Assembly (NCBI GenBank): GCA_044228505.1
Contig: JBGAUT010000014.1
Location: forward strand, 1 to 14,724
Origin: Polyangia bacterium
Lineage (GTDB): Bacteria > Myxococcota_A > Polyangia > Palsa-1104 > JAEUJZ01
Length of the DNA: 14,724 nucleotides
Direction of reading: 5' to 3'
Shown here: positions 1 through 13,521 of the stretch, in pieces
How positions within the stretch are numbered: position 1 is the first letter of the stretch
Layout of the letters: every line of letters starts with the position of its first letter
The notes under the pieces: model-generated
What the model was told of the DNA's origin: nothing
Seen by the model: the letters and a program-made list of their open reading frames with translations, nothing else
Database searches by the model: none
Program-made: the position numbers and the translations under genes

Positions 1-1087
1 GCCCACCAGCGCCAGCGCCCCGAGCATCACATCAATGATCGACTTGGGATCCTCAATGCGCAGAATATGATCGGGCGAAATGACGCTGGCCCACTGCCTA
101 ATAATCACGTCGTCCTGGTAGTTGGCGTAAAGAGGATTCTCTGTGGCAGCCTGCGCATCTTCCGCAGGGCGTTGGCTTGGATCGTAGGTGAACTCGGCGA
201 TGGGAACATCGCTGTTTGGACCGGTCTCGCCTTTTTGGGAAATGACACCCTCGAAGCGCTGAATGTTGCCGTTCACTTCTAGCTCGACCCGATAGGACGT
301 CGGCGCAAGGTCGGTCTCGTGGAACCGATAGTTCTGGACGTAGACGCGATACTTGCCGGTGGGAGCAGTGCCCTTTCGCCACCGGACGTTTTCGACGGGC
401 TTGGTCGTCTCACCACGCACATTACGATCGACGTCCAGCTCACCGCGACAGACGGACTGCTTGTGTCCATAAAAGATGTGCTCGCCCGATGGCGTCACAA
501 CGTGAAGATCGAGGTCGTTGCGGTTGTCCCAGATCAGGCTGGCACGAACGTCGACCCCTTCGTAGACACCGCCCGCTGCTTCGACGCGCTTTTTGATCTC
601 GGCATCAATGTCCCGACGGCGCTCCGCCATCGACTTCTGCGGATAGATGAAAAAGACGTGATACTTCTGCGCAAGCTCCGCAAAAATCGCGCCCGAATCG
701 AGATCGTGGCGCTCCTCCCGACCGAGGACACGGCGGATCTGTTCGCGACTCACCTTGGGATAGAAGCCTTCGTCACCAAGGAAAAAGAAGTAGCCCTTTT
801 TGCCGTTTCGCAAGCAGTCCAGCTTCGAGTGGCGAGCGTAAAAGTAGGCCGCTAGCTCGTAGGACTCTTGGCCAGTGCCACCGCCGCCCTCTTCGATCCA
901 AATCTTCGATAGCACTTCGTCGAGCCGGTTGTCCGCCTCGAACTGTCCCACTTGCAGCGGTGCCTGATCCGAGTTCGCATCCCCAATGGCGGCAAAACTA
1001 ACCGCCGGACCGGAGACGTAGTTTTTCATAATGATCTGCCCGATAAACATCGGCAGCTTGTCGTAGAAGCTGCTGATCAAGGCCATC
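1..1087 (-). CDS. Hypothetical protein, 3'-truncated at the window edge (C-terminus lies beyond coordinate 1). It has a Gly-rich EEGGGGTGQESYELAAYFYARH segment and a beta-rich region (SLIWDNRNDLDLHVVTPSGEHIFYGH...YRVYVQNYRF...YRVELEVNGN) that I can only loosely liken to vWA-associated / DUF2135 (YfaP)-type domains.
   Basis: I hand-translated the reverse complement of 1..1100 and found one uninterrupted reading frame from about 1097 to the window edge at coordinate 1. It has no stop in the window, so it is absent from the M-to-stop ORF track. An in-frame TGA at about 1098-1100 closes the frame upstream. Candidate ATG starts are rc 1087 (MALISS...), 1050 and 1029 (MKNYVSG...). I saw no clear SD for any of them, so the start is uncertain. 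All plus-strand ORFs here (for example 319..855) look like antisense shadows. Confidence 0.55.
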
Positions 1088-1122
1088 GCAGCGATGGCAG
1101 AGGCCAGGTGCGGCTGGGCGTG

Positions 1123-1140
1123 TGGTCCTTTTGTGGTCCC
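1123..1140. promoter_or_regulatory. Direct-repeat motif GTGGTCC-TTTT-GTGGTCC (copy A), lying 36-53 bp upstream of the preferred start (1087) of the minus-strand gene.
   Basis: A second copy at 4342-4359 (GTGGTCC-TTTG-GTGGTCC) is nearly identical, 17 of 18 bp. Both copies sit at the 5' end of minus-strand genes. On the coding strand the motif reads GGACCAC-N4-GGACCAC. Confidence 0.35.
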
Positions 1141-1404
1141 TCCGCACTTTCAATCCACAGTTCCGAACAGACGTGGGGCAGAGGCCTCTCCGTGTAACGA
1201 CTAGGAGCCAGTTTTCAGACGGAGAGATGCTCCTCTGTGCCCCAACGGAGGAGACCCAAACACGGCACGGTGTGGGTCAGAAATTCAGCCTGGAATTGCT
1301 CCTTGATGGACCGGAAGCGAACGCGATGGAGTACGGCCATCTAGTCATCCGAGCAGGATCGGCCCCCCATGATCTAGCGGTGGTCCATCGTCTGCGAAGT
1401 TTCG

Positions 1405-1410
1405 TATAAT
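1405..1410 (+). promoter_or_regulatory. TATAAT -10-like hexamer 6 nt upstream of the GTG start at 1417, compatible with a leaderless or very short-leader transcript.
   Basis: The hexamer is an exact TATAAT. There is no SD between it and the GTG. I could not pick out a -35 with confidence. Confidence 0.2.
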
Positions 1411-1416
1411 GATGCG

Positions 1417-2100
1417 GTGAAGCGGACAAACACGCGTCTTGGTGGTTTGGGGATCCTTGCGCTGGTCCTTGTGGGGCCAGGTCCGGTTCAGGCCGGCGAT
1501 CGTGGTCCCGAGTTTCCGTCGCTACCCTCGGCAACCGCGCTGTCGTTTTACCAGAAGCTGACCGGCATCATGCCAGGTGCGCGCAAAGATCTGCGCTGGA
1601 CCCTCAGCTTCGTCGGCGGTCAACCCCGCCTGTCTGTGCAGACGCGCAACTGCCCGGGGTCCAGCCAGGAGCAAGGAGCGGCTGTGCCAAGCTGCAAAGA
1701 GCCCTTCGGCAAGCCGGTGGTGTCGTACGAAGGCAAGCTGATTCAGCGGCCCTACGGCGTTGAGCTGCGGCTATCAAGAGAGGCACCGGCAGAGGACTAT
1801 CCGTCGGGGATGAACTTGACTTGCTTGCGCACCGTGGTTGGAGTGCTGCCGCCCGGTGCCTCGCTTGGGATGGGGGATGCCTGCAAAGGCGACGGGCCAC
1901 CGCCGCGCTGGCAGCCGGGGGCGACCAAGGATGTCGGGCTGTGGCTGTGCAGCCTGCAGAATGAGAATGGGGAACCGTGGTCCGGCTCTCGTTCGGTGGG
2001 GCCGCTGGCCTTTGCACCGAAGGCAGGCGTCGAGTGGCTCTTCGTCAACAACGACTGCGCGGGCCAAGAGGGCGCATATCGTGCGCTGCCGGGCCCGTAG
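1417..2100 (+). CDS. Secreted hypothetical protein, 227 aa, with an N-terminal signal peptide and six Cys residues.
   Basis: GTG is the first start codon after the in-frame TAG at 1375-1377. The N-terminus MKRTNTRLGGLGILALVLVGPGPVQA|GD has the n-, h- and c-regions of a Sec signal peptide. Third-position GC is high, consistent with coding. The overlapping minus-strand ORFs 1604..2017 and 1774..2334 have no such features. Confidence 0.5.
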   Translation: MKRTNTRLGGLGILALVLVGPGPVQAGDRGPEFPSLPSATALSFYQKLTGIMPGARKDLRWTLSFVGGQPRLSVQTRNCPGSSQEQGAAVPSCKEPFGKPVVSYEGKLIQRPYGVELRLSREAPAEDYPSGMNLTCLRTVVGVLPPGASLGMGDACKGDGPPPRWQPGATKDVGLWLCSLQNENGEPWSGSRSVGPLAFAPKAGVEWLFVNNDCAGQEGAYRALPGP

Positions 2101-2528
2101 GCGGCTACGTATCGACCGTTCGCGCTGTGTCGTCAAGGCTCTGGAAGCATTGGCATAGTCCGAACAAACGGACTGGAACGCTGTCTTCCCAGGGGCCGAG
2201 TCAGTTGTACCTGACCGGGCCCGCTTGTGTATCCGGCGAACCCGGGTGCAGCCCGTCTGACCTATTTTTATGAGGCATTGTTGGATACCGTGGAGTTTCT
2301 GGAAAATGAATGATACAAGTTCCGCACCAGACATCAGCTACCATGGCTGAGCCAATCATAGAGAAGTAAGCGTACGTGACGCACTCGTGAAATCAGTTAA
2401 AAAATGCTATTTTACTACACTGTAAACTTGCAGTACGATCAACAAACGCGGGAGAGTCTGGGCTGGCTTCCGTATTTGGCAATGCCGACAGCTCACCGAT
2501 CGTTTTTGTCGTATGGAGAAGTGTGATC

Positions 2529-2969
2529 ATGCATAAACTGCTCAGGGTATTTCTCATCATACAGACGCTGTTTCTCGGTATCACGGCGGTCTTGGGCGGG
2601 TTGGCCCTGGTCACTGGATGGAACTCACCACCGCTTTCGGAATTGAACGGGTCAGTATTCAAAGATTTCACCATTCCGGGAATTTCGCTATTTTTGATTG
2701 TTGGCGGCAGCGGGTTCTGCGCTGCGGTGTCGCTCTTTCGAAAGAGTCAATTAGCCAACGTGTTTTCAATCGCCGCCGGAGCGGTGATTATGTTTTTCGA
2801 ATTTGTTGAAGTGCTTACCATCGGATCCCCTCCCGGTGCTGCAAGGAATCTTCAGATTGTATATTTTGGGCTCGGATTTATCATCGTTATAACGGCGCTT
2901 GCGGTACGGTTCATGGAAATCACCGCAAGCCATACCAGCGCGAACACGACCTCGTCTTTCAAAGACTGA
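2529..2969 (+). CDS. Small integral membrane protein, about 146 aa, with about 4 predicted TM helices. Function unknown.
   Basis: The ATG at 2529 is preceded by GGAGAAG (2513-2519) at SD spacing. The ORF-track start at GTG 2523 is less likely. Four hydrophobic stretches are LRVFLIIQTLFLGITAVLGGLALV, GISLFLIVGGSGFCAAVSLF, VFSIAAGAVIMFFEFVEVL and IVYFGLGFIIVITALAV. The gene lies in a visibly lower-GC stretch than its neighbours. Confidence 0.55.
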   Translation: MHKLLRVFLIIQTLFLGITAVLGGLALVTGWNSPPLSELNGSVFKDFTIPGISLFLIVGGSGFCAAVSLFRKSQLANVFSIAAGAVIMFFEFVEVLTIGSPPGAARNLQIVYFGLGFIIVITALAVRFMEITASHTSANTTSSFKD

Positions 2970-3227
2970 GAGTATTCCGGAATCTCCTGATTCAGCAGCG
3001 CGACCGGCTCTGGCACCTTTGTGCGCCTGTCGCTGGAGCACTCCGATCGACGCAGCCTCGCGCAGCTCAGACACGTACTTCTATGATGAATGTGGAGAGA
3101 GTCAATGCGCTCTGCTTCAGCATCGACTGCAACTCTTCGTAAGTAGGCAGGACATAGCTCATCAGGAATCAAACGATGTCTACCGTGGCGGAGAATCCTG
3201 AAAACGGCAGCGACGGTTCGATGTTGG

Positions 3228-4337
3228 CTAGAGCTTCAGTTTCTTCATCTCTGAGGCCATGAAGCTGTCATTGATGTGAGCGTAGACCATGGTCATCTGA
3301 ATGTCGGCGTGACCCAGCAGCTTTTGCAGCGTGGGGATCGATCCGCCAGACTGCACAAACAGCGACGCGAAGCTGTGGCGAAGACAGTGCAGCGGGGCCT
3401 GTGGAACCCGGAGTCCGGCGGCGCGGTAGAGCGCAACCGGGCTGGGCGCTCGATACGCTTGATGCCAAGGCGCAGCATCGAAGTTGCGTTTCTTCGGGCT
3501 GAGAGGGCAGATGACGTCCTCCTTCGTCGCCGGACAGCGACTCTGCCAGTCTCGCAGCGAGGTGAACAGCTCATCAGGCATCGGCACGGTGCGCGGCTTT
3601 CCTGTCTTGGTTACCCCACGATAGGACTTGCTCACGGTGATGACCCCTCTCTCCAAGTCGCAGTCTCGCCATCGCAAGCCAAAAATCTCCCCGGCCCGTA
3701 ACCCTGCCAAGAGGCCGAGCCGCACTGCCACAGCGAAAACCGCCCCGCGCAAGTCATGCTTCGCCTGATCATCTGCTGCGTCGAGGAGTCTCCGGGCCTC
3801 TGCGAAGCTCAAGAACTCAAGCCGTGCTTCCTTGCGGGGTTTTCGAAGTCCCGCGAAGGGGTTTTGAACCACCAGGCACTGCTTGGTGGCCCACGCGAAC
3901 ACGCAGCTTATCTGTGACAAACGGACCGCAGCCGTGTTGGCTGCCCCACTACGGATGAGGACGTTCCGCAGCTTCTCAGCTTGTGCGGGGGAGAACTGGG
4001 ACGCGACCAACGCCCCGACCTGACGCAACACGGGACGAAGGTGGGTCCGGGCTTTGCGCGCCCAACGATCGTGATTGCGGATTTTCGGTGAGTCGTACTC
4101 GCTCAGAAAGCGCTCCGACAGATCGGCGATTGTCATCATCGCCAGCTCGGGCTCTCGCTCCGGCACTCCCAACTTGCCGCGTGCGATCCGGGCCTCGATC
4201 TCGATGAGCATCCGCTTCGCTTCTGCGTGGGTATGTTGTCCGCTCGCTCTCTGCTTGCGCTTTCCATCGACGTCGACGAAGCGCAGATACCACCCGACGA
4301 AGCGACCGCCCTTTACCTTCCTTATCACCTCACCCAT
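3228..4337 (-). CDS. Tyrosine-type site-specific recombinase / phage-type integrase.
   Basis: The C-terminal catalytic signature is present: GLRAGEIFGLRWRD (Arg box), HCLRHSFAS (H-x-x-R) and LLGHADIQMTMVYAHI (His...Tyr nucleophile). The N-terminal KGGRFVGWYLRFVDVDGKRKQRASG...AEAKRMLIEIEARIARG is the usual integrase N-terminal arm/SAM-like domain. My preferred start is ATG at rc 4337 (MGEVIRKVKGG...), with AAAGGA 9-14 nt upstream. The ORF track gives the longer GTG start at 4385. Confidence 0.9.
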   Translation of the reverse strand: MGEVIRKVKGGRFVGWYLRFVDVDGKRKQRASGQHTHAEAKRMLIEIEARIARGKLGVPEREPELAMMTIADLSERFLSEYDSPKIRNHDRWARKARTHLRPVLRQVGALVASQFSPAQAEKLRNVLIRSGAANTAAVRLSQISCVFAWATKQCLVVQNPFAGLRKPRKEARLEFLSFAEARRLLDAADDQAKHDLRGAVFAVAVRLGLLAGLRAGEIFGLRWRDCDLERGVITVSKSYRGVTKTGKPRTVPMPDELFTSLRDWQSRCPATKEDVICPLSPKKRNFDAAPWHQAYRAPSPVALYRAAGLRVPQAPLHCLRHSFASLFVQSGGSIPTLQKLLGHADIQMTMVYAHINDSFMASEMKKLKL

Positions 4338-4341
4338 TGCC

Positions 4342-4359
4342 GTGGTCCTTTGGTGGTCC
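4342..4359. promoter_or_regulatory. Direct-repeat motif GTGGTCC-TTTG-GTGGTCC (copy B). It overlaps the SD region and lies immediately 5' of the integrase start.
   Basis: The coding-strand reading is GGACCAC-CAAA-GGACCAC-GGCA-ATG. It is near-identical to copy A at 1123-1140. Confidence 0.35.
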
Positions 4360-4443
4360 ACCGCCCCGAAGGATTTCGCCGACACAGCCCAGCACGAGGC
4401 CTGTGTAAGCGTCCACCCACAGCGATAGAAACCAGTTAAATCA

Positions 4444-4459
4444 TTACATTTTTATGTAA
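4444..4459. promoter_or_regulatory. Perfect 16-bp palindrome TTACAT-TTTT-ATGTAA in an AT-rich spacer. It is a candidate operator or recombinase-binding site upstream of the integrase, or a weak terminator hairpin for the 77-aa ORF.
   Basis: The two 6-bp arms are exact reverse complements. The site lies 107 bp upstream of the int ATG and 10 bp downstream of the stop of ORF 4469..4702. It is embedded in the AT-rich sequence AACCAGTTAAATCATTACATTTTTATGTAACGCTAAATACTAG. Confidence 0.3.
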
Positions 4460-4468
4460 CGCTAAATA

Positions 4469-4702
4469 CTAGTCGTAGATGATACGGGTGTCGTCGCCGC
4501 GAGAGCGGGTGACGTCCATGGCGACCACGATCGGTGTGTCGTTCATGCACTCGCGAATCTTGCCGTTGGGATCGAGGTTCTGGTGCACGCCTCGCCGGGC
4601 CGCAGCCTCTCCAGCCGAGCCATAACCGCGATAGGTAAACACGTCGCGGTTGTTCGAGCGCGACTCAAGCGCAATGTCCTCATCGTAGTTGCCACCGCCC
4701 AT
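4469..4702 (-). CDS. Hypothetical small protein, 77 aa.
   Basis: The ATG start is preceded by a purine/G-rich SD-like AAAAGGGGGG about 6 nt upstream. Codon usage is GC3-rich and in line with the neighbouring genes. I recognise no family in MGGGNYDEDIALESRSNNRDVFTYRGYGSAGEAAARRG... Confidence 0.45.
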   Translation of the reverse strand: MGGGNYDEDIALESRSNNRDVFTYRGYGSAGEAAARRGVHQNLDPNGKIRECMNDTPIVVAMDVTRSRGDDTRIIYD

Positions 4703-4769
4703 GGGAGCCCCCCTTTTACTGGCCTGTCCGCCGATCTTATACCAGTTGGGGCGATGCCACGCGGGCCAG

Positions 4770-5279
4770 CTACTCGGCGTCGATCAGCGCCTGGACTGCC
4801 ACCGATAGATACCCCGCATAGCGGGCGCGAAAGGCCGGGTCTTTCCAGTCGTCCGAGGTGACTTTGCCACGGCACTCGGACGTGCCACACCGGCAATCCA
4901 TCTGAAATCCACCGTCTGCGTGATCGATTAGCACCGTGCCGTAGTCAAACGTCAGTTCGGCCCCAGCGGCGATGTCGGTGAGTGCCACGACCATGATCTG
5001 CCCCCGAATGCCGCAGTTCGGAGCGCACGAGTGATTGACGAAGTCGCCATCGCCTAGCTCGTCCTCGCCAATCGGTCCTAGCAAATAGCCCGGCCAGATC
5101 GAAATGGCGACCGCTTGCACCTGCGGCGACAGCTTCTGAAACGTCGCCACGTCGTAGACATGTCCGCCAAACAGCGCCACCGTCTCACCGGCCCGAATCG
5201 GCTCGATGGCGAACGTGCCACGGCCATCCACCTGGCTTTTGCGGGTTACGACTTTGGGGCAAAGGTAACTTAGCGACAT
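4770..5279 (-). CDS. SET-domain protein, 169 aa, a putative protein/amine lysine N-methyltransferase with a post-SET Cys cluster.
   Basis: Canonical SET motifs are present: the GxG region DGRGTFAIEPIRAGETV, FVNHSCAPNC (NHSCxPN), ELTFDYG (ELxFDY) and CRCGTSECRGK (post-SET cysteines). AAGGGA sits 5-6 nt upstream of the ATG. The gap to the upstream SET gene is 12 bp. Confidence 0.85.
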   Translation of the reverse strand: MSLSYLCPKVVTRKSQVDGRGTFAIEPIRAGETVALFGGHVYDVATFQKLSPQVQAVAISIWPGYLLGPIGEDELGDGDFVNHSCAPNCGIRGQIMVVALTDIAAGAELTFDYGTVLIDHADGGFQMDCRCGTSECRGKVTSDDWKDPAFRARYAGYLSVAVQALIDAE

Positions 5280-5291
5280 ACGGATCCCTTG

Positions 5292-5702
5292 TTAGGCCGA
5301 CTGAGTGGCGCTGACCTGTTTCAGAAAATGACCACCGCCTGCAAGTTCGTGATCAAAGACTCGATAATCGCAGGTCAGTTCCTCGCCCGCCTTGATATCA
5401 CGATTGGCACGAATCACGGCGGGTGGTGACTCGGTGGTATTCGGATGATCACTGTGATTCATGAACCTGCCATCATCACAGCTCAAGACCAAGCTGCCAG
5501 GGAGATCTTCAAATCCGTAGCCATATCTGGAAAGAAATGTACGAAATATCGGCGGCAGCAATTCGATCTGTTCTCTGGTAAAAACTCGCTCTGACGCATC
5601 ATTCCATTCCCAAACCAAGCACCCGGCAGGAATATCTTCCGCCGCGAATAGACCAATACCACCGTGCTGATCGGGTCCAAGATAGGTCTTTACTGTTAGC
5701 AT
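5292..5702 (-). CDS. SET-domain protein, 136 aa, the second SET paralog. It has no post-SET Cys cluster.
   Basis: SET motifs are the GxG region HGGIGLFAAEDIPAG, RFMNHSDHPNT (NHSxxPN) and GEELTCDYR (ELxxDY). GC looks lower than in the flanking NRPS-like gene. Confidence 0.8.
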   Translation of the reverse strand: MLTVKTYLGPDQHGGIGLFAAEDIPAGCLVWEWNDASERVFTREQIELLPPIFRTFLSRYGYGFEDLPGSLVLSCDDGRFMNHSDHPNTTESPPAVIRANRDIKAGEELTCDYRVFDHELAGGGHFLKQVSATQSA

Positions 5703-5731
5703 GTTAGCGGATCCACATCAAAGGAAACGAC

Positions 5732-8197
5732 TCAGTAGGAGCCCACTAGAGAAGGGTTTAGCTCTTTGGTGTAAAACACGGCTTCTTTATGCACTGCGGC
5801 GGCTGACAGCAGTATTTTTTGGCCGTTGTCCTCATACGTTGCATAGGACTGACTACTCGTCCGAACAAATCCAAGCATTTCTGCCGATAGTGCGGTTGCG
5901 CGATGCAGACATAAGGCACCAGCGTGACGATAACCGAGCGATTTGGCCATATCTAGAATACGGCGGTCCAGTTCGAACAGTAGCTCGGTGCCGTCGATAC
6001 CTGGTTTTGCCCCAGCAATCGCCATATCCAGCATTTCTCGCTCCAGGAGCTTCGGAACTCGCAGATCGTAGGGCTCAAAGAAGTACGCGAGAAATGTCTG
6101 ATAACGCACAAAGGCTTCGGATAGCTCGGCCGGTTCGAGCGGAACCGGCGTGATCCAGTCCCCAGCCAGGCTGAAGCCGACCAGCTCACCACTTGCGCCG
6201 TCGAGCGCCACCAGCGACAGCCCTTGTCCTCGGTAACGCGAAATCAGCGCCCGATAGAACGGCAACAGATCGACGGCCTGTAGCCGGAGGCTTTGGCACA
6301 CGGGCTCTGCGCTGACAAAGACCTCGCACGCAAAGTGAATCAAGGCCTCTTCCGAGACTTCAGTGGCAGGCACAATCCGATAGTTGGGTAACGCGCTGGG
6401 CGTAGGGATCGGCTCGCGACCGCTGAGCCACCGCCCAAGCTGAGCCACCGATGAATCCCGTAGCAGCGAAAGGGGTACCTGCGGCCCCCCCCGAGTGGCC
6501 AGCTTGGCCCCTAGCTCCGCCAAGGCCAGTGAGTCGCCCCCGAGCAGGCCGAGGCTGTCGTGCGGACCCACCGGATGGATGCCCAGGACTTCCGAAAACA
6601 GTGTAGCCAGCGACTGCTCGTCTGCATCGAGAGGGACCGTCTCCGAGGGTCGATTCGCCTCGATTCGCTGTGCGATCTCCACCAGCGCTCGCCGGTCGAT
6701 TTTGCCACTTGGAACCAGCGGCAGCTCGGCCAGCGCCATGAATCGCGACGGCACCATCGCCGCTGGTAACCGCTCGCTCGCCCGCTGACACAGCCGCTCA
6801 ACCCCCAGTTCCATCGGCGAGCAAAACAGCCACAAGCGCCGAACTTCGGGATCCGCCGGACTGGGAACCGCGACGGCTGCCACCATCCCGCCCGCAGGCA
6901 AGTCGCTCGACACGGCCTGCTCGATCTCCTCCAGCTCCATCCGGATGCCGCTGACTTTGACCTGATTGTCGACGCGGCCCAGGTAGTCGAGCTGTCCATC
7001 AGGCAAGCTGCACACGCGATCCCCAGTTCGGAACAATCGCTTGTCGCAGCGCGTTGGATGCGGAACGAAACGCAACCGGTCTTCCTCTGGACGTCGCCAA
7101 TAGCCCCGAGACAGCACGGGCCCCCCGACGTACAGCTCGCCCTCGACTCCTACCGGAACAGGCCGCCGCTGCTCATCCAGCACCAACAGCTCGGCACCGG
7201 TGATGGCAGAGCCAATCGGTACTCGGCCCTTCGGAATCGGCGTCTGCGGGGCAAACTCGGCACAGGTCACATCGGCGGATACCTCGGTGCTGCCGTACAG
7301 GTTAAGCAGCGTCGCCTGCGGATGGGCCTGTCGAAAGCGCTGTAGTAGCGCCGTACTCAGCGTCTCGCCACTGCTCACCCACAGCGAGAGGAGGGGCAGC
7401 CGCTCGCCGAGGTCAGGAAACACCCGCAGCAGCGTCGATAGCAGTGATGGCACCAGCGTGAGCCGGGTCACCCGATGGGCGGCCAACGTCGCCACTAAGC
7501 GGTGCAGATCCGTCACTTCCTCTGGCCGAATGATCGCGGTGGGCACACCTTGCAACAGCCCGCTGAACACCTCCGTCACCGAGTCCACGAAGTTGAGCGA
7601 GGATCGATGCGCGACCACGTCTCCGGGCACAAGCGGATACTGGGCGAAGCCCCAGCGCAAGCGCGTTGCCATCCCGACTTGGGTCACACAAACGCCCTTC
7701 GGTCGGCCCGTGCTGCCGGAGGTATACAGAAGGCACAAGAGGGCCTCAGCCCCGTCGCTCGGCATCTGCAGCGGTTCCGTAGAAAAAGCCGCCACTTCTG
7801 CGGAATCTACCGCCACGCCGGTCAGCGACGACCGCAGCGACAGGGCATCCTGGTTTGCCCCGCTCGTCAACATCACCTGGGCCCCGCAGTCCTCGGCGAT
7901 CCACTGCTGACGCTGCTGGGGATACGTCGGATCGATGGGCACATAGATCCCGCCGGCGAGCAGGATGCCGAGCAGCCCGATCGTCGACTCCAGGGATCGA
8001 GAAATCGCCAAACCAACCGGTGTTCCGCCGCCGACACCGCGACCACGCAGAGCCCGAGCCACTTGTGAGGCTCGCCCGAGGAGCTGCTCGTAGGTAAGAG
8101 ACTGCTCAGCGCAGCGGAGTGCCAGCGCTGTCGGATGGCGCTGCGCAACCGCTACAAACCATGCCGCCAAGTTCTCGTCTGATTGCGAGTTCTCCAT
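5732..8197 (-). CDS. Stand-alone NRPS-like protein of 821 aa: adenylation domain, peptidyl-carrier (thiolation) domain and a C-terminal roughly 210-aa GNAT-like domain (A-T-X). It has no condensation, thioesterase or reductase domain.
   Basis: A-domain core motifs are LTYEQL (A1), LLYTSGSTGRPKGV (A3), NFVDSVTEVF (A4), NLYGSTEVS (A5, Ser in place of Pro), LFRTGDRV...YLGRVDNQVKVSGIRMELEEIE (A7/A8) and LPLVPSGKIDRRAL (A10). The carrier motif is HDSLGLLGGDSLALAEL, with Ser556 as the putative Ppant site. The C-terminal 605-815 lacks HHxxxDG, GxSxG and Rossmann motifs but shows a GNAT-like pattern (see the domain feature). Confidence 0.9.
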   Translation of the reverse strand: MENSQSDENLAAWFVAVAQRHPTALALRCAEQSLTYEQLLGRASQVARALRGRGVGGGTPVGLAISRSLESTIGLLGILLAGGIYVPIDPTYPQQRQQWIAEDCGAQVMLTSGANQDALSLRSSLTGVAVDSAEVAAFSTEPLQMPSDGAEALLCLLYTSGSTGRPKGVCVTQVGMATRLRWGFAQYPLVPGDVVAHRSSLNFVDSVTEVFSGLLQGVPTAIIRPEEVTDLHRLVATLAAHRVTRLTLVPSLLSTLLRVFPDLGERLPLLSLWVSSGETLSTALLQRFRQAHPQATLLNLYGSTEVSADVTCAEFAPQTPIPKGRVPIGSAITGAELLVLDEQRRPVPVGVEGELYVGGPVLSRGYWRRPEEDRLRFVPHPTRCDKRLFRTGDRVCSLPDGQLDYLGRVDNQVKVSGIRMELEEIEQAVSSDLPAGGMVAAVAVPSPADPEVRRLWLFCSPMELGVERLCQRASERLPAAMVPSRFMALAELPLVPSGKIDRRALVEIAQRIEANRPSETVPLDADEQSLATLFSEVLGIHPVGPHDSLGLLGGDSLALAELGAKLATRGGPQVPLSLLRDSSVAQLGRWLSGREPIPTPSALPNYRIVPATEVSEEALIHFACEVFVSAEPVCQSLRLQAVDLLPFYRALISRYRGQGLSLVALDGASGELVGFSLAGDWITPVPLEPAELSEAFVRYQTFLAYFFEPYDLRVPKLLEREMLDMAIAGAKPGIDGTELLFELDRRILDMAKSLGYRHAGALCLHRATALSAEMLGFVRTSSQSYATYEDNGQKILLSAAAVHKEAVFYTKELNPSLVGSY
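5753..6385 (-). other. C-terminal domain X, about aa 605-815, a putative GNAT-fold acyl/aminoacyl-transferase domain.
   Basis: The pattern GAKPGIDGTELLFELDRRILDMAKSLGYRHAGALCLHRATALSAEMLGFVRT mirrors GNAT motif A (GxG then LL..L...A...G...I.L.V) and motif B (A..(L)..(K/M)..GF). It is clearly homologous to the C-terminal domain of the second A-T-X protein (YRFAMTICTHRVTAIQAERAGFTRL). I assign the fold from the motif pattern only. Confidence 0.4.
6428..6634 (-). other. Carrier-protein (T/PCP) domain, about aa 522-590.
   Basis: The motif is LGGDSL. The Ser codon lies at about 6530-6532. Boundaries are approximate. Confidence 0.75.
6683..8140 (-). other. Adenylation (AMP-binding) domain of the A-T-X protein 5732..8197, about aa 20-505.
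   Basis: Motifs A1 to A10 are listed under the CDS. Asp235 of the FDxS-equivalent (NFVDSV) is retained, implying an alpha-amino-acid-type substrate. Boundaries are approximate. Confidence 0.8.
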
Positions 8198-8352
8198 CTA
8201 GATACTACTATAACCATAATTGTTTTTATTCATAATTAATTCATCACACATTGCTGTTCCACGATTTATCCAGCAATGGAATTTAATCACAAAATTCAGA
8301 TCTCGATGCCGTACTCCAATTCGACCATCAACATGCCATTGCGCATGAGAGT
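8198..8352. promoter_or_regulatory. AT-rich spacer of 155 bp (about 30% GC) between the two NRPS-like paralogs. It is a candidate internal promoter or regulator site, and contains a TTCATAATT direct repeat and an AATTAATT palindrome.
   Basis: The sequence is TAGATACTACTATAACCATAATTGTTTTTATTCATAATTAATTCATCACACATTG... Its AT content is striking next to flanking genes that I estimate by eye at 60-65% GC. CATAATT occurs twice, about 17 bp apart. Confidence 0.3.
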
Positions 8353-10821
8353 TCATGTAAGCTCCTTAACAAACAGGATCGCCTCGCGATGGACATTGGC
8401 CAATGAGGCAAACACCCGCTGTCCTTCAAACTCGTACGTGGAATAATCACGCGATGAGAGCCGAGTAAACCCGGCCCGCTCGGCCTGGATCGCGGTCACG
8501 CGATGCGTGCAAATCGTCATAGCAAAGCGGTAGCCACGTTCCCGAGCCGCAGCCAATGATTGCAGCTCCAACTGGCGGGTCATCTCGTACCCAGGAACGC
8601 CTGGAATGGTGCCGGTCAAAGAAAGTTGCACCACTTCGCCTCGGCTGGGTTCCCCGTACTTTCGAATGAACTCGTGTTCCAGCTCGGTCAGCAGATCGAG
8701 GCTCGGCAGCAGCCGCACCGGTGCCGTCTCAACCGGGACGACCGCCAGGCTGCAGAAGTCATGCGCGAGACAGATACCCAACACCGGCTCGCTATCCTTT
8801 AACCGTGCCACAAACGACAGATCGTCCGCCCAGCTCGCCTGCACAATCGGAGTGACAAACGGCAGGTCTTCTTCCAGCGTCAGCGACGTGGCAGCGGTGA
8901 GCGGCTCACGATCAGCGTCCATCTCAGCCGCCAGTCGAATGGTCTGCTCCTCACTGAGCCCCGACGCAGACAACGGCAACAGCTCGTACGTAGGCTGTGG
9001 AGGCAGGTCCAATGCCGAATGTTCGTCGCCATCGATCCAGCTCGCGATGACATGCAGGGGCAGCCGAGCAACTTGCACGCTCTCCAGCCGGCCACCGTGG
9101 AAATCTCGAACGATTGCGACCAAAAGCTCCGCCAAAGCGAGCGAATTCCCGCCCAAATCGGCAAAGGAATCCTGGCGCGCAATCGGACTCACAGATAGCA
9201 AGGAAGAAAACAGCGCAGCCAGCCGCCGTTCGGTGCCGGATTGCGGTTCCTCCGATGGCTCCAGCACCCGAGTCGTGCGCTGCGCGAGTTCCGTCAAGGT
9301 GCGCCGATCGAGCTTGCCATTGGGCAAAAGCGGCAGGGTTGCGATGGCAAGGTACTCGGCCGGCAGCATGCTGATCGGTAGCAGTCGCTGCGCCGCAGCC
9401 TGCAGCATCGAGACCGGCAGGTCCGGTGGCGAAAAAAACGCAAAGAGTCGCCGCGACAGAGGCTGGTCGGGTTCTTCTTTGACCACCACCGCCAGCTCAC
9501 GGAGCAAAGGACACGCGCCGAGCAGCGTCCGCTCAATCTCCTCCAGCTCGACCCGCACCCCGCGCAGCTTCACTTGATGATCTTGCCGCCCCAGAAAATA
9601 CAACTGACCGCTGCTGTCCCGTCGCACGCGATCGCCGGTGCGAAACAGCCGCTCACCCGGATGGTGCGGATGGTTCACAAAGCGCCGTGTCTGCTCGGCC
9701 GGACGACGTAGATAGCCCTGCGCAAGCACGGGGCCACCAACGTACAATTCGCCGCTTTGGCCATCGGGCACGGGCTGCATCTGCTCGTCCAAGATCAGCA
9801 GCTCGGCACCAGCCATCGACGATCCGATCGGCACCCGGTCTTCGGGCAGCGGCACTCTAGGCGGAAAGACCGCACAAGTGACATCGGCCGTCACTTCTGT
9901 GCTGCCATAAATATTGAGCATCGTGGCCGACGGATGGGCAGCCCGAAACTGCCGAAGCAGCGAGAGCGGCAGCTCTTCTCCGCTACAGGTCCACAACGTA
10001 AGCTGAGGCAGGGCCTGTTCCAGGTTGGGCACCGTGCGCAACAGCGCCGCCAGCACCGATGGCACCACGGTCAGTCGTGACACCTCAAAGCGTCTGAGCG
10101 CCGCGATGAGTGTTCCCAAATCCCTGACTTCGCTCGGATACAGCAGTGCGGTCGGAACGCCGCTCAGCAGTCCCGAAAAAATCTCGGCCACCGAGTCCAC
10201 AAAGTTGAGCGACGAGCGGTGCGCCACCACCTCGACACCACCTTGCGCAAACGGGAAGGCGGTCACGCCCCAGCGCAGGCGGTTGAGGGTAGCGCGGTGA
10301 GTGCCACACACGCCGTTGGGCCGACCAGTGCTGCCCGACGTATACAGGACATACAGCAGATCGTCGACGCAAGTCTTGGTCGCAGCAAAGTCCGTTGGTG
10401 GTGCCTGTCCACGGAGTGCATCCAGATCGACCACCAAGCCAGCGAATTGCTGCAGCGGCGGCACCATGGAAGACGAGGTGACCACCACCGATACCTCCGA
10501 GTCGGCCAGCAGGAAGCGCTGACGCTCCGTCGGATAGTCGGGATCGATCGGGACGTAGGCCCCTCCGGCCAGCAGCGTGCCAAGCACCGCGGTAAGCGAC
10601 TCCACCGAGCGTGGCAGCACGATGCCAACCAAGACGCCGCGAGTGACGCCATGCCCACGCAGGGCTTGGGCAACCGCAATCGCTCGCCGAAGGAGCTCCC
10701 CGTAGGAAAGATTCCCCTTGGAAGAAAGGACCGCAACAGACTGTGGTTGGCTCGTCGCTATTCGAAGGAAATGCGTCGACAGGGAGATGTCTTCAGACAA
10801 AAACATAGGCGCGACGACCAT
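8353..10821 (-). CDS. Stand-alone NRPS-like protein of 822 aa, paralogous to 5732..8197, with the same A-T-X architecture (A domain, carrier domain, GNAT-like C-terminal domain).
   Basis: A-domain motifs are LSYGEL (A1), VLYTSGSTGRPNGV (A3), NFVDSVAEIF (A4), NIYGSTEVT (A5), LFRTGDRV...FLGRQDHQVKLRGVRVELEEIE (A7/A8) and LPLLPNGKLDRRTL (A10). The carrier motif is QDSFADLGGNSLALAEL, with Ser560. The C-terminal 612-820 is homologous to domain X of the other protein. An SD-like AAGGGA lies about 10 nt upstream of the ATG at 10821. Confidence 0.9.
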   Translation of the reverse strand: MVVAPMFLSEDISLSTHFLRIATSQPQSVAVLSSKGNLSYGELLRRAIAVAQALRGHGVTRGVLVGIVLPRSVESLTAVLGTLLAGGAYVPIDPDYPTERQRFLLADSEVSVVVTSSSMVPPLQQFAGLVVDLDALRGQAPPTDFAATKTCVDDLLYVLYTSGSTGRPNGVCGTHRATLNRLRWGVTAFPFAQGGVEVVAHRSSLNFVDSVAEIFSGLLSGVPTALLYPSEVRDLGTLIAALRRFEVSRLTVVPSVLAALLRTVPNLEQALPQLTLWTCSGEELPLSLLRQFRAAHPSATMLNIYGSTEVTADVTCAVFPPRVPLPEDRVPIGSSMAGAELLILDEQMQPVPDGQSGELYVGGPVLAQGYLRRPAEQTRRFVNHPHHPGERLFRTGDRVRRDSSGQLYFLGRQDHQVKLRGVRVELEEIERTLLGACPLLRELAVVVKEEPDQPLSRRLFAFFSPPDLPVSMLQAAAQRLLPISMLPAEYLAIATLPLLPNGKLDRRTLTELAQRTTRVLEPSEEPQSGTERRLAALFSSLLSVSPIARQDSFADLGGNSLALAELLVAIVRDFHGGRLESVQVARLPLHVIASWIDGDEHSALDLPPQPTYELLPLSASGLSEEQTIRLAAEMDADREPLTAATSLTLEEDLPFVTPIVQASWADDLSFVARLKDSEPVLGICLAHDFCSLAVVPVETAPVRLLPSLDLLTELEHEFIRKYGEPSRGEVVQLSLTGTIPGVPGYEMTRQLELQSLAAARERGYRFAMTICTHRVTAIQAERAGFTRLSSRDYSTYEFEGQRVFASLANVHREAILFVKELT
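8362..8988 (-). other. C-terminal domain X, about aa 612-820, a putative GNAT-fold transferase domain.
   Basis: TGTIPGVPGYEMTRQLELQSLAAARERGYRFAMTICTHRVTAIQAERAGFTRL aligns with GNAT motifs A and B and with domain X of the paralog. Confidence 0.4.
9037..9249 (-). other. Carrier-protein (T/PCP) domain, about aa 525-595.
   Basis: The motif is LGGNSL, a variant of GGHSL/GGDSL. Boundaries are approximate. Confidence 0.7.
9292..10749 (-). other. Adenylation domain of the A-T-X protein 8353..10821, about aa 25-510.
   Basis: See the CDS entry. The FDxS-equivalent NFVDSVAEIF shares D-S-x-x-E with the paralog. Boundaries are approximate. Confidence 0.8.
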
Positions 10822-10959
10822 CCAGGTTTTCCCTTTGTTGCCGAGAGTTGGCTCTGAACAAGGACAAGGAAGGTAGGGACACCTTGGGTATCCGAATCTG
10901 GAAGCGACCAGGACGCATGTTCTGCCAAAATTTTCGCTAGGTTGCGCCGATTAGACAAC

Positions 10960-12234
10960 TTAAATCTCGACCTGTTTTAGCTCGCGAACCCGTCGAACAC
11001 CGTAGAGCAAACACAGCAGGATCGCCGCCCCGACCACGTTTAGCACGGCGTCGGTCGTGTACAGCGCTCGCAGTCCGTGACGCGCATAGACATGCGTATC
11101 GAGCGACAGCACATACATCTGGGCAATACTAGAAAACGCATAGAAGATCGAATACTGCGTCGAAGATGAATGACTTGATTTACTAATCAATTCAAACACC
11201 ATAGCTGAACAAGCCGCAATCGAGACACCCTGCATCACATCGTATACAATCGAGCCGATCGCATAGACAGATGGAGAAATTGGCATCACGGCCCAATATG
11301 TACCGACCATCGCCATAGCCACCGCAGAGATTATATATAGCGCACGACTATCGATTCGAAGGCAAAAGACACCACCAAGATAGACGCCAAGAAACGAAAG
11401 AAACCAACCAGCGAATCCATTGAGACTTACGGTCATCCATTCAGGGGCCTGATAATCTACCGCCAAGGCCGGTAAAAAGAAATTAAGAGCCATCGTGCTC
11501 GCAGGACAAATACACAAAACCAGACCCAGCCAGCCATCCCTTCCGGTCAGGGTCTGGCGAGCCTCCGCAACGAAAGCGCGAGCAATGACTCGCGGCTGGT
11601 GGCGCAAGCGCTCCGGTTCGGGAATAACCAGCGCCGCCAGGGCTGGCACAATGATGAGCGAGCCACTCACCAGCGCGAGCGTTGAGACGGAGCAGCGCTG
11701 CGTCAACACCAACATCAGCGTCGCACCAACCGAGCCACCGACTTGTATGCCCAAGTTGAGCAAGTTAGAGGCCTTGAGTCGACCGGCGCGATCCAGCGTG
11801 GTGGCAGCCAGTCCGCCAAAACAGCTCGTCGCCAACCCATATTGCATCTGCGCAACCAGAATCAGCGCATAAAAGAGATTCTCATGATTTCGCGTAATAA
11901 GGAACAATGCGATGATAATAGAGAATGCACAAGCCAAAGACATCCAAACAAACCACGATTTTCTTTTGATCCACAAATCCGTAATCGGATTACAGAACGG
12001 CTGTATAATATAAGGAAAGACGGAAGCCGTACTATACCAACCAATGGCCTCGATCGAGAGACCGAATTTACGCATCAAAAATGGCATCTCACTCAAGAAA
12101 AAGGAACCGGCCATTCCTAGCGAGAGCGCAATAATAAAATAGGGTAGAGCCGCATATCCGGACAGAGAATGCTCGATGGGCACTGGCTCGGTCAGACCGT
12201 CGCCCGCGAGATTGCGATGCAAGGCCGACTCCAT
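10960..12234 (-). CDS. MFS-type transporter with 12 predicted TM helices, a possible exporter for the product of the adjacent enzymes.
   Basis: The protein is 424-425 aa with about 12 hydrophobic segments. A cytoplasmic-loop motif after TM2, NPITDLWIKRKSW, resembles the MFS G-x-L-x-D-R/K-x-G-R/K-R/K loop. The start is ATG at rc 12234, and the track's TTG at 12237 is the alternative. GC looks lower than in the NRPS-like genes. Confidence 0.75.
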   Translation of the reverse strand: MESALHRNLAGDGLTEPVPIEHSLSGYAALPYFIIALSLGMAGSFFLSEMPFLMRKFGLSIEAIGWYSTASVFPYIIQPFCNPITDLWIKRKSWFVWMSLACAFSIIIALFLITRNHENLFYALILVAQMQYGLATSCFGGLAATTLDRAGRLKASNLLNLGIQVGGSVGATLMLVLTQRCSVSTLALVSGSLIIVPALAALVIPEPERLRHQPRVIARAFVAEARQTLTGRDGWLGLVLCICPASTMALNFFLPALAVDYQAPEWMTVSLNGFAGWFLSFLGVYLGGVFCLRIDSRALYIISAVAMAMVGTYWAVMPISPSVYAIGSIVYDVMQGVSIAACSAMVFELISKSSHSSSTQYSIFYAFSSIAQMYVLSLDTHVYARHGLRALYTTDAVLNVVGAAILLCLLYGVRRVRELKQVEI

Positions 12235-12402
12235 CAACGCGCCTGTCCGCTTGACCGCGAGCTACCGTTCATCAGCCTCTTTTTGTTCATCCGATCCACA
12301 TCTTTTCCATATGTTACCAAAGTCTTCGGCGACTCGATCGCACGCCCCAACCGGAAGAATCGCAGGAACGAAGCTCGCCAAGCGGCGGCGGCTCGGGGCT
12401 TC

Positions 12403-13461
12403 CTACTTGGATGTGCCAGAACCAACGAAGGCGGGGTCTTCGAGTGCCAGCGGGGTACAGTTCAGCGGGGCCACAAGTGGATTGCAGCGAGCGGGCTGGC
12501 CGGTGGGAACCTCAAAGCGATAGGAAAACTTACTCGTCGGTTCTGGAAAGTCGGTACTGATGAAGTGGGCCGCGCTCAGAAGGGCCGATTGCCCTCGGGA
12601 GATGTCTGCTAGGCGAGCTTCTTGGGTATCAGCGTCGGCACGAGTCCGCACGAGAAAGTGACTCTGCACTGCTTTCTGGATCTGCGCTTGGTCGGCCACG
12701 CTTTTTGGATTGTTGAGGACCGACACCGCCCCAAACGGATCTTCCGGCGCAGAGTCCACAAACAGCAGCCTTCCTTGCAGATCCTTTTTGTTGTGGGTGT
12801 ACGCAGTCCGCACCGGGCCCGTGGTGTCGAACGCAAAGAGCACTCTGCCCCGCAGCCGACCGAGCACCGGCCAGCCGCGCTCACGAAGCGCATCACGGAG
12901 CGTAGCCGATTCCCCCTGAACTTCCGCAGGAGTGATCACCCGTTGCCGTGGGAAGGCCGTCAGGATCTCGGCCTCCAGGTGCCCAAAGAAGCTCTCTAGT
13001 TCATCAGCGGGTGTGTCGTTTTTCGGTTCGATCTGAACGTAGATCGGGAGGTGTCCTGGATATGCATCCGAGAAACGTCGAATCTCTCGCAGGCAGTCGA
13101 GTAAGCGGGTGCAGCGCGTACCGGTGTCCACAAACGGAATGTGAACCACCGTCAATCCGTCCTGCGCATCAAAGGAGACATCCAGCTCCAGTTGACGGAT
13201 TTGCAAACGATCAAGCTGCTCGTAGATCGGAGCGTGCGTGTACTCCCACGCTTCAACGGAACCATCGTGGGTGTCGACGTGATAGCTATTGTGGGTACCC
13301 CGGACCTGAACGTGCTGGAGCTTGAGCAGGTCATCCAGCGGATACTTGAACGGCTTTCCGATTACGTCCGGCGGCACGTCTGAATCGCTACCGCTCGCGC
13401 CACAACCAGCACCGATCGTCAGCGCGACCAGCAGACCGATTCTAAGGAGCCCTCTACGCAT
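12403..13461 (-). CDS. Putative lipoprotein of 352 aa with a PLC-like phosphodiesterase motif (PI-PLC X-box-like HNSYH).
   Basis: The N-terminus MRRGLLRIGLLVALTIGAG|C fits a signal peptide plus lipobox ([LIV..][A/G][A/G]C). VRGTHNSYHVD resembles the catalytic-His region of the PI-PLC X domain, which is SSHNTY in eukaryotic PLCs. The rest of the protein has no family I can name. Confidence 0.5.
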   Translation of the reverse strand: MRRGLLRIGLLVALTIGAGCGASGSDSDVPPDVIGKPFKYPLDDLLKLQHVQVRGTHNSYHVDTHDGSVEAWEYTHAPIYEQLDRLQIRQLELDVSFDAQDGLTVVHIPFVDTGTRCTRLLDCLREIRRFSDAYPGHLPIYVQIEPKNDTPADELESFFGHLEAEILTAFPRQRVITPAEVQGESATLRDALRERGWPVLGRLRGRVLFAFDTTGPVRTAYTHNKKDLQGRLLFVDSAPEDPFGAVSVLNNPKSVADQAQIQKAVQSHFLVRTRADADTQEARLADISRGQSALLSAAHFISTDFPEPTSKFSYRFEVPTGQPARCNPLVAPLNCTPLALEDPAFVGSGTSK

Positions 13462-13521
13462 GCGCGGAGCCTACTACGAACGGCTCTACGTTGTATCTGG
13501 ATGTAGCGAGCGGTAGGACCG

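Follow-up and report, generated by a model that had tools for sequence, protein, structure and literature searches.

We analyzed a 14,724-nt stretch of DNA from an uncultured Myxococcales lineage (contig JBGAUT010000014.1), hereafter the window, for which an earlier note had proposed a single horizontally acquired island of about 10 kb at 2270-12400 with a tyrosine integrase at one end. The results make it very probable that the window instead holds two independent insertions in a conserved module formed by a Ser/Thr kinase gene and, downstream of it, a gene for a vWA/YfaP-like protein. One is a 3.4 kb integrase element that splits the vWA gene; the other is an 8.8 kb block in the spacer between the kinase and vWA genes. 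The claim of one integrase-bounded island did not hold, as the att pair encloses only 1068-4479 and a related metagenome contig, L053, carries the gene cluster of the block in the absence of the element. Horizontally acquired DNA as such was recognized correctly, in that relatives lack these sequences and an integrase element is present, but the unit proposed was wrong. Features of the window are collected in Table 1.

The integrase element and the gene it splits

Near-identical metagenome contigs were retrieved by means of the PI-PLC (phosphatidylinositol-specific phospholipase C-like) protein of the block and the 369-aa integrase, and were then aligned to the window; in exact-protein look-ups these two proteins were on record, while a 385-aa version of the integrase starting at GTG and the 821-aa adenylation-carrier-X (A-T-X) protein of the block were not. 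Relatives with an intact vWA gene, i.e., L020, L022, L050, and L052 (about 80% nucleotide identity to the window) and L016 to L019 (about 72%), aligned over 2-1065/1073, then over 4469/4472-4713/4715, and again from 13521/13580 onward, leaving two gaps. At the first gap, the element was missing precisely at the predicted attB in L020, L022, L050, L052, and L053, so the empty site that the earlier note hoped to see in related genomes exists; that of L020, cggcagctt-GTCGTAGA-tgatgcgggtg, is exactly the left part of attL joined to the right part of attR. The att repeats at 1057-1067 and 4469-4479 are identical at 10 of 11 positions, and the attL core is held in a perfect inverted repeat, GCAGCTT-GTCGTAG-AAGCTGC (7-7-7), over 1053-1073. 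This layout is predicted to represent two core-type recombinase sites flanking a 7-bp overlap, which is the classic arrangement. Direct repeats had been anticipated in the flanks 2100-3230 and 12238-12402; repeats do exist, at 1060-1067 and 4472-4479, but not in those flanks. Indeed, a generic search for repeats over the whole window found none pairing 2100-3230 with 12238-12402; it did not rank the 8-bp core, and it did surface a pair of heptamer sites described below. The adjacent tRNA or tmRNA target that had also been envisaged was not borne out, with 0 tRNA/tmRNA genes by ARAGORN and 0 Rfam matches in the window, the target being a protein-coding gene.

When the two parts of this target gene, 4472-4702 and 1-1059, were fused, the resulting open reading frame (ORF) had more than 100 full-length homologues of about 490 aa with 100% coverage, and its alignment with P0041 (66% identity; source label YfaP family / VWFA-domain) was gapless across the joint, from which it follows that the insertion of 1068-4479 split one conserved gene. 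In L020 and L022, the intact gene starts with a stretch that is 80% identical in nucleotides to the 5' fragment (4472-4702). The vWA/YfaP-like target itself matched no family in NCBIfam, Pfam, or PADLOC. The insertion falls at codons I-Y-D, and the core is translated as Y-D in one and the same frame in both gene halves, hence precise excision would rebuild an intact gene. On the element side of attR, the triplet 4469-4471 supplies a TAG stop that closes the orphaned 5' fragment. The left end of the element contributes an in-frame ATG with seven codons (MALISSF) to the 3' part of the gene, whose ORF now begins at this element-supplied ATG, at 1086, as MALISSF-YDKLPMF. Very probably, the element recombined into the vWA gene via the 8-bp crossover core GTCGTAGA, which produced the 5' stump and the 3' part seen in the window.

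A truncated protein made from the ATG at 1086 would be without its first 75 residues, including the region of a DxTxS-like motif. An analogous element-derived start, MRDIR, was observed in L036.

The element is built of the tyrosine integrase, two conserved heptamer-bearing ends, and an exchangeable cargo slot. The earlier note had identified the tyrosine integrase correctly, evident by its match to PF00589 (E, 5.9e-28) and the presence of all catalytic residues, i.e., R214, K247, H317, R320, H343, and Y352; in searches of family libraries it matched generic integrase models only. All seven GTGGTCC heptamers of the window lie inside the element and on one strand (1.65 expected), and two tandem heptamer sites were found versus 0.12 expected. 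Diverged elements in L021, L024, L036, L048, and L055 have the paired site as well, and in L036, L048, and L055 it stands at the same place upstream of the integrase start. Because the pair is kept in diverged elements, it is very likely a protein-binding site of the arm type, and the heptamers are considered putative integrase-binding sites. At the other end, the palindrome TTACATTTTTATGTAA (4444-4459) sits 13 nt inward from attR. Upstream of the integrases of 58-63% identical relatives that target CheB (L058, L060, and L062), the pattern TnACAnAAAAAnTGTAA is kept, with a conserved tttaa-Nggtttcc stretch after it. This palindrome region may be a host-factor site, an excisionase site, or the integrase promoter.

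Homology to the elements of L024, L048, and L055 is limited to 1068-1139 and 3230-4479, and this break indicates that 1140-3229 is a replaceable cargo slot. In L048/L024 the slot is occupied instead by other genes, among them those for an M28 peptidase, a kinase fragment, and a C-terminal domain like that of the HindI type I restriction endonuclease. The cargo ORFs of the window had no match in Pfam, NCBIfam, PHROG, or PADLOC, and searches of Pfam, PHROG, and NCBIfam with these three ORFs gave no conjugation, relaxase, or phage structural or replication gene. As to gene orientation, the genes from 4770 to 12237 are indeed co-oriented with the integrase as previously claimed, but the actual cargo of the element lies on its other side and on the opposite strand. 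A prophage origin was considered and rejected, as the closest integrase in IMG/VR was only 31% identical over part of its length.

A search of the metagenome collection with a degenerate pattern that covers the four att forms led to contig L053, which aligned contiguously to 60-1067 (96%) and 4469-12228 (88%) of the window and whose att site is empty. L053 shares 99.95% identity with L048 and 99.4% with L024, and the latter two, from one metagenome-assembled genome (MAG), are occupied. One population holds both filled and empty forms of the site. In addition, an attP-type junction linking 4479 to 1068, with the joint reading ...aaatacta-GTCGTAGA-agctgctg..., was present in L011 (JGI 3300006056) and L012 (ENA ERZ27257527), which come from different samples and assemblies. 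Altogether, the coexistence of both states in one population and the attP-type joints show that the element is currently or recently active.

Contigs of the same species (L001 to L015) very often end in or beside the element, for example at window positions 2403, 4479/4580, and 4753-4964; these ends are consistent with branching of the assembly graph caused by presence or absence of the element and by attP joints.

The 8.8 kb block in the kinase-vWA spacer

At the second gap of the alignments, the distance from the kinase stop to the vWA start is about 50-60 nt in L020, L022, L050, and L052 and 24 nt in L016 to L019. By tblastn, all 13 of the 13 loci in which the vWA gene is intact, which belong to MAGs labelled as several different phyla, had a kinase homologue directly upstream of that gene, ending about 25-100 nt before it; the same searches detected no homologue of the PI-PLC, MFS, A-T-X, or SET genes in any of the 13. 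The adjacency of kinase and vWA genes in all of these loci supports that adjacency is ancestral and the 8.8 kb block derived. Besides the window species, L055 (about 75-84%) and the CALLYL/L053 population (88%) have the block. In L053 the empty att site is contiguous with SET-SET-ATX-ATX-MFS, i.e., the block without the integrase element, and in L055 the region of the second SET gene, SET2 (5310-5762), and the AT-rich spacer (8204-8346) are absent, with 37 nt and 11 nt there instead. The PI-PLC gene, which had been placed outside the island, lies within the block. The block is lineage specific and mosaic in composition, and it occurs both together with the integrase element and in its absence. 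It may have been gained by horizontal transfer or by illegitimate recombination, after which homologous recombination in the conserved flanks could have allowed it to spread or persist.

Base composition was compared to a same-species background of about 11 kb (L001 1-7940 together with host portions of the window; 103 windows of 400 nt), with a mean GC content of 57.8%, a standard deviation of 2.7%, and a minimum of 50.5%. The GC mosaic described in the earlier note was confirmed for most segments by sliding and per-gene profiles, the low-GC segments lying 2.3-4.2 standard deviations below the same-species mean. GC content is about 49-52% over 2200-3200, 5300-6000, and 10800-12400, with windows of 49.0-49.5% within 2201-3000. 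The membrane gene of 146 codons in the element cargo (49.7% GC), SET2 (5292-5702; 50.4%), and the MFS gene (10960-12234; 51.8%) have GC contents at third codon positions (GC3) of 57%, 48%, and 57%, respectively, 10-25 points lower than the 65-78% of host genes. Values of 61.1% for the integrase gene and 63-65% for the A domains agree with the previous estimate of 60-65%, and the spacers 4386-4468 (43.4%) and 8198-8352 (35.5%) are AT rich as stated; the flanking host genes measured 57-61% rather than 60-65%. The 3' ends of both A-T-X genes had been called low in GC, which applies mildly to the X-domain part of the first (56.0%) but not to that of the second (59.8%), where the apparent dip is due to the adjacent AT-rich spacer. 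Of the segments singled out before, 2270-3230 corresponds to the cargo of the integrase element and 4386-4468 to its arm beside attR.

Trinucleotide distances were deviant (z, 3-6) at 2001-3000, 6001-8000, 9001-10500, and 11001-12500, while the PI-PLC and kinase genes had host-like composition. Within the block, the MFS gene, SET2, the spacer, and the A domains deviate and the PI-PLC gene does not, a pattern shared with L055 and measured against a small background; with only about 11 kb of background, the compositional deviation is real but moderate. The mosaic is in part old, since L055, a relative at about 80% identity, has an equally low GC content in its MFS gene and first X domain, and in part the product of later indels, since SET2 and the AT-rich spacer have no counterpart there. 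The spacer 8198-8352 gave no Rfam match, and gene callers placed a doubtful ORF of 52 aa in it.

How these insertions arose was weighed against several other explanations. A single island of about 10 kb (2270-12400), bounded by the integrase and carrying the SET, A-T-X, and MFS genes as integrase cargo, would account for an integrase that adjoins the cluster genes and is co-oriented with them, and for the finding that the window, L048, and L055 have both features and L020, L022, and L016 neither. It is nevertheless almost certainly wrong: the att cores and homology breakpoints place the element at 1068-4479, the 5' stump of the target gene (4472-4702) separates the integrase from the cluster and so leaves the cluster outside the element, L053 combines the cluster with an empty att site, and no repeat or tRNA was found near 12238-12402. 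That the block was ancestral at the locus and differentially lost in relatives we regard as very unlikely. In the flanks, L055 and L022 show similar nucleotide identity to the window (about 80%), but the block occurs in just one of the two, and the host-like composition of the PI-PLC gene would also fit; yet 13 of 13 intact loci, very distant ones included, show the gap of about 25-100 nt and no cluster homologue, so that many independent precise deletions would be needed. The cluster could also have come by earlier integrase activity at or near an insertion hotspot, the two insertions being historically linked and now separate. The kinase-vWA module has been targeted repeatedly, with three distinct insertion sites in the vWA gene; the cargo of elements at the first of these sites is freely exchanged; and a distant A-T-X/SET cluster lies beside a Y2 transposase in L056. 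Still, the cluster sits upstream of the vWA start codon, outside the recognized att sites, and no integrase remnant, heptamer site, or core-like repeat was found at the block edges, which leaves this history with a small probability.

A further explanation concerns the GC mosaic, which might reflect protein composition and weak codon bias in membrane and poorly expressed genes rather than different origins. This is doubtful, though of all of these alternatives it deserves the most weight: the MFS and 146-aa membrane genes are low in GC at first and second codon positions, as is typical of hydrophobic proteins, the pattern is kept in L055 and is therefore stable rather than recent, and the host background itself dips to 50.5%. 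On the other hand, GC3 is low as well (57% in the MFS gene, 57% in the membrane gene, and 48% in SET2 versus 65-78% in host genes), SET2 and the spacer of 35% GC are indels when compared with L055, and the low-GC segment 2200-3200 sits in the exchangeable cargo slot.

Several observations count against two independent insertions, the first of them by an active element, and temper this conclusion. No boundary repeats or mobility genes were found at the block edges (by repeat search, and by eye for the edge spacers), and no donor of the block was identified, its gain being argued from outgroup parsimony. At 8 bp (10 of 11 positions in the longer repeat), the att core is short, and recombination at it is deduced from sequence comparisons. 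The attP-type joint comes from short-read metagenome contigs, and L011 and L012 each contain one chromosomal junction too, hence the joint may stem from a tandem copy and not from a free circle; in either case, recombination at the core is required. An excisionase, oriT, relaxase, or phage gene was not found in the element, nor were genes for transfer between cells. In terms of composition, the same-species background comprises a mere 11 kb or so, some of its windows go down to 50.5% GC, and hydrophobic residues account for part of the low GC content in the MFS and membrane genes, which have low values at first and second codon positions. These points notwithstanding, two separate insertions into the kinase-vWA module are very probable. 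The features of both insertions and of the module are given in Table 1; Pfam calls comprise the integrase, two SET, two AMP-binding plus PP-binding, MFS, PI-PLC-C1, and Pkinase.

Table 1. Coordinates of the two insertions, their parts, and the host genes in the window
Feature	Position	Strand	Basis or remark
Integrative element	1068..4479	.	3,412 bp with one core copy counted; absent at predicted attB in relatives
attL	1053..1073	.	Core GTCGTAGA at 1060-1067; homology breakpoints of relatives here
attR	4469..4479	.	Core GTCGTAGA at 4472-4479
3' part of disrupted host vWA/YfaP-like gene (~490 aa), from codon 78	1..1059	-	Translation; runs off left end
Orphaned 5' fragment of vWA/YfaP-like gene, 77 codons, MGGGNYDE...TRIIYD	4472..4702	-	ORF 4469-4702
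Tyrosine integrase, 369 aa	3228..4337	-	PF00589 E 5.9e-28; phrog_1 E 2.9e-65
Tandem heptamer GTGGTCC-N4-GTGGTCC	1122..1139	+	54 nt inside attL; putative arm-type integrase site
Second tandem heptamer GTGGTCC-N4-GTGGTCC	4342..4359	+	5 nt upstream of integrase ATG
AT-rich arm, 43% GC	4386..4468	.	Palindrome TTACATTTTTATGTAA at 4444-4459
Variable cargo slot	1140..3229	+	Contains low-GC 2200-3200
Doubtful orf95	1122-1409	+	Strand opposite integrase
Secreted 227-aa protein gene	1417-2100	+	Strand opposite integrase
Four-helix membrane protein gene, 146 aa	2529-2969	+	Strand opposite integrase
Second insertion, ~8.8 kb, kinase-vWA spacer	~4714..13520	-	Replaced by 24-60 nt in relatives
SET gene	4770-5279	-	Pfam
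SET gene (SET2)	5292-5702	-	Pfam
A-T-GNAT synthetase	5732-8197	-	PF00501, PF00550
AT-rich spacer	8198-8352	.	GC profile
A-T-GNAT synthetase	8353-10821	-	PF00501, PF00550
AmpG-like MFS transporter	10960-12237	-	Pfam
PI-PLC-like protein	12403-13461	-	Pfam
Host Ser/Thr kinase, conserved upstream partner of vWA gene	13522..14712	-	Pfam

Integrase relatives and the products of the block

Relatives of the integrase numbered 149 at an E value of 1e-20 or below, with identities to about 39% among the matches listed and many of them on short contigs; the few with a named source were from Myxococcales or Polyangia, one being in a MAG labelled Pseudomonadota. Related elements with different cargo occupy the same vWA site in L021, L024/L048, and L055. 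In L036, an element of 2.4 kb with a 40% identical integrase is inserted at a second site of the vWA gene, at codons YVQNYRF; the core of this site is GTGCAGAAC[G/T]ACCGCTT, and the same heptamer pairs are present at both element ends. The second site is also occupied in L045 and probably in L044. An ORF of 146 aa in the second element of L036 was considered as a homologue of the window membrane protein and rejected, as no similarity was found.

In the clade, the vWA gene is interrupted at three conserved codon blocks, i.e., IYDKLP, YVQNYRF, and SPDHILR, the interruptions being located at 1-1059 plus 4472-4702 in the window, 10750-13140 in L036, 1248-2862 in L045, and 5700-10028 in L024. At the third site (SPDHILR; equivalent to window 60-77), a 4.3 kb insertion without an integrase has an imperfect 17-nt flanking repeat and carries a DUF4246/2OG-oxygenase gene and a gene for a Gly-zipper protein. 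The 58-63% identical relatives of the integrase are inserted in codons of the CheB receiver domain (DVMMPKMDG), with variant tandem heptamers (GGCGCAC) directly upstream of the integrase start. Judging from these insertion sites, the integrase family appears to target conserved codon blocks in conserved genes. A bolder proposal is that the integrase represents an undescribed family of minimal elements (2.4-3.4 kb) in Myxococcota, each made of an integrase plus arm sites, that home to highly conserved codons of conserved signalling genes (two different sites in the vWA/YfaP-like partner of the kinase, and the receiver domain of CheB) and possibly act as reversible switches of the modules that they enter. 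An on/off role might be envisioned since the ORF is restored by precise excision and a single population contains both states; we consider this proposal as a whole rather unlikely.

In GCA_009612975.1 (L058 6019-11848), a related element splits cheB at the receiver phosphorylation motif. This element has two inverted integrases, one at each end, together with HutD and a polyprenyl synthase.

The two A-T-X proteins of the block (821 and 822 aa) are paralogues with 44% identity. An exhaustive profile search collected 499 relatives of the X domain, where a word-indexed homology search gave one; many are proteins of about 800 aa with the domain at the C terminus, and many are stand-alone proteins of about 215 aa. 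Among the scanned relatives of about 800 aa, two have an AMP-binding domain, and in P0134 a pyridoxal phosphate-dependent decarboxylase precedes the X domain as an N-terminal fusion. Several stand-alone homologues matched the GNAT family PF00583. When the enlarged X-domain profile was compared to the PDB, it matched 4fd5, of the insect arylalkylamine/dopamine N-acetyltransferases (AANATs), with an E value of 1.5e-27; it also matched Drosophila Ebony (6dym) in the C-terminal domain, with an E value of 1.1e-19. The window sequences alone matched insect AANATs only, a single one of them below an E value of 0.001 (about 1e-3) and the others at 0.02-0.7. When three aligned sequences were given to AlphaFold (AF2), the resulting model of the X domain was poor, with a mean predicted local distance difference test score of 49, and was not used for fold search. 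Based on the profile matches to AANATs and Ebony together with the A and carrier domains, both large enzymes are predicted to be Ebony-like A-T-aaNAT amide synthetases. The atypical condensation domain of Ebony was described by Izore et al. 2019, as cited in PMC10531068.

The one distantly related cluster that was found, in L056 (5203-10961; 69% GC), stands in a different context and has the order PhyH, A-T-X, SET, A-T-X, SET, next to the Y2 transposase. The presence of A-T-X and SET genes together in this cluster as well indicates that the pairing is conserved and suggests that the SET methyltransferase-like proteins may be functionally paired with the A-T-X synthetases.

Meaning of the locus and comparison with known systems

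The locus provides an example from uncultured Myxococcota of a very small, active integrase element that has att sites precise to the nucleotide, candidate binding sites for the integrase, and an exchangeable cargo slot, and identifies the strongly conserved kinase-vWA module as a recurrent insertion hotspot in the clade. For annotation, the borders of mobile DNA are corrected: the cluster resembling one for a nonribosomal peptide synthetase is not cargo of the integrase, and the "hypothetical" ORFs at 1-1086 and 4469-4702 are the halves of one disrupted gene. The predicted tandem Ebony-like amide synthetases with their SET partners are marked out as a lineage-specific biosynthetic block, and the polymorphism of the element would explain the frequent contig breaks at this locus. 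PADLOC matches of the kinase reflect generic similarity of kinase domains and were not taken as evidence for a defence system. The element is of an ordinary kind, with a new target; its mechanism is conventional, and what deserves attention is the choice of target, the minimal size, the polymorphism within a population, and the repeated hits on one module.

By analogy, the closest described counterpart of the integrase family would be the dusA-associated integrase islands (Farrugia et al. 2015, PMC4482086). In both, the target of the tyrosine integrase is a conserved segment near the 5' end of a protein-coding gene that is itself conserved, no gene other than the integrase is constant and the cargo varies greatly, excision joints are detectable, and an element end gives the truncated gene a new start. 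The elements described here are set apart by their target, a vWA/YfaP-like gene (CheB in a sister clade) and not dusA or dusB/C, by hosts in the Myxococcota and not the Proteobacteria, and by a far smaller size, 2.4-3.4 kb in minimal forms. Furthermore, only 7 codons are supplied here in place of 75, and restoration of the truncated vWA protein is therefore unlikely.

Elements that interrupt a gene and rebuild it upon excision include skin in sigK, SPbeta in spsM, and the comK prophage of Listeria. Like these, the window element is inserted in frame, its precise excision would regenerate the ORF, and both states occur in nature; unlike these, which are prophages or prophage remnants with excision under developmental or infection-linked control, no phage genes were found in it. 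The integrase-only "minimal hitcher" islands (iOriT) of nosocomial Proteobacteria and Firmicutes (bioRxiv 10.64898/2026.01.13.699239) are likewise small, att-delimited islands with an integrase and without relaxase, conjugation, or phage genes, but in the window element no oriT was identified, and it has no known helper element. As for the block, its predicted synthetases share with Drosophila Ebony (PDB 6dym) the combination of an A domain, a carrier, and a C-terminal arylalkylamine-N-acetyltransferase-like GNAT domain, whereas the window enzymes are bacterial, tandem-duplicated, and always paired with SET-domain genes.

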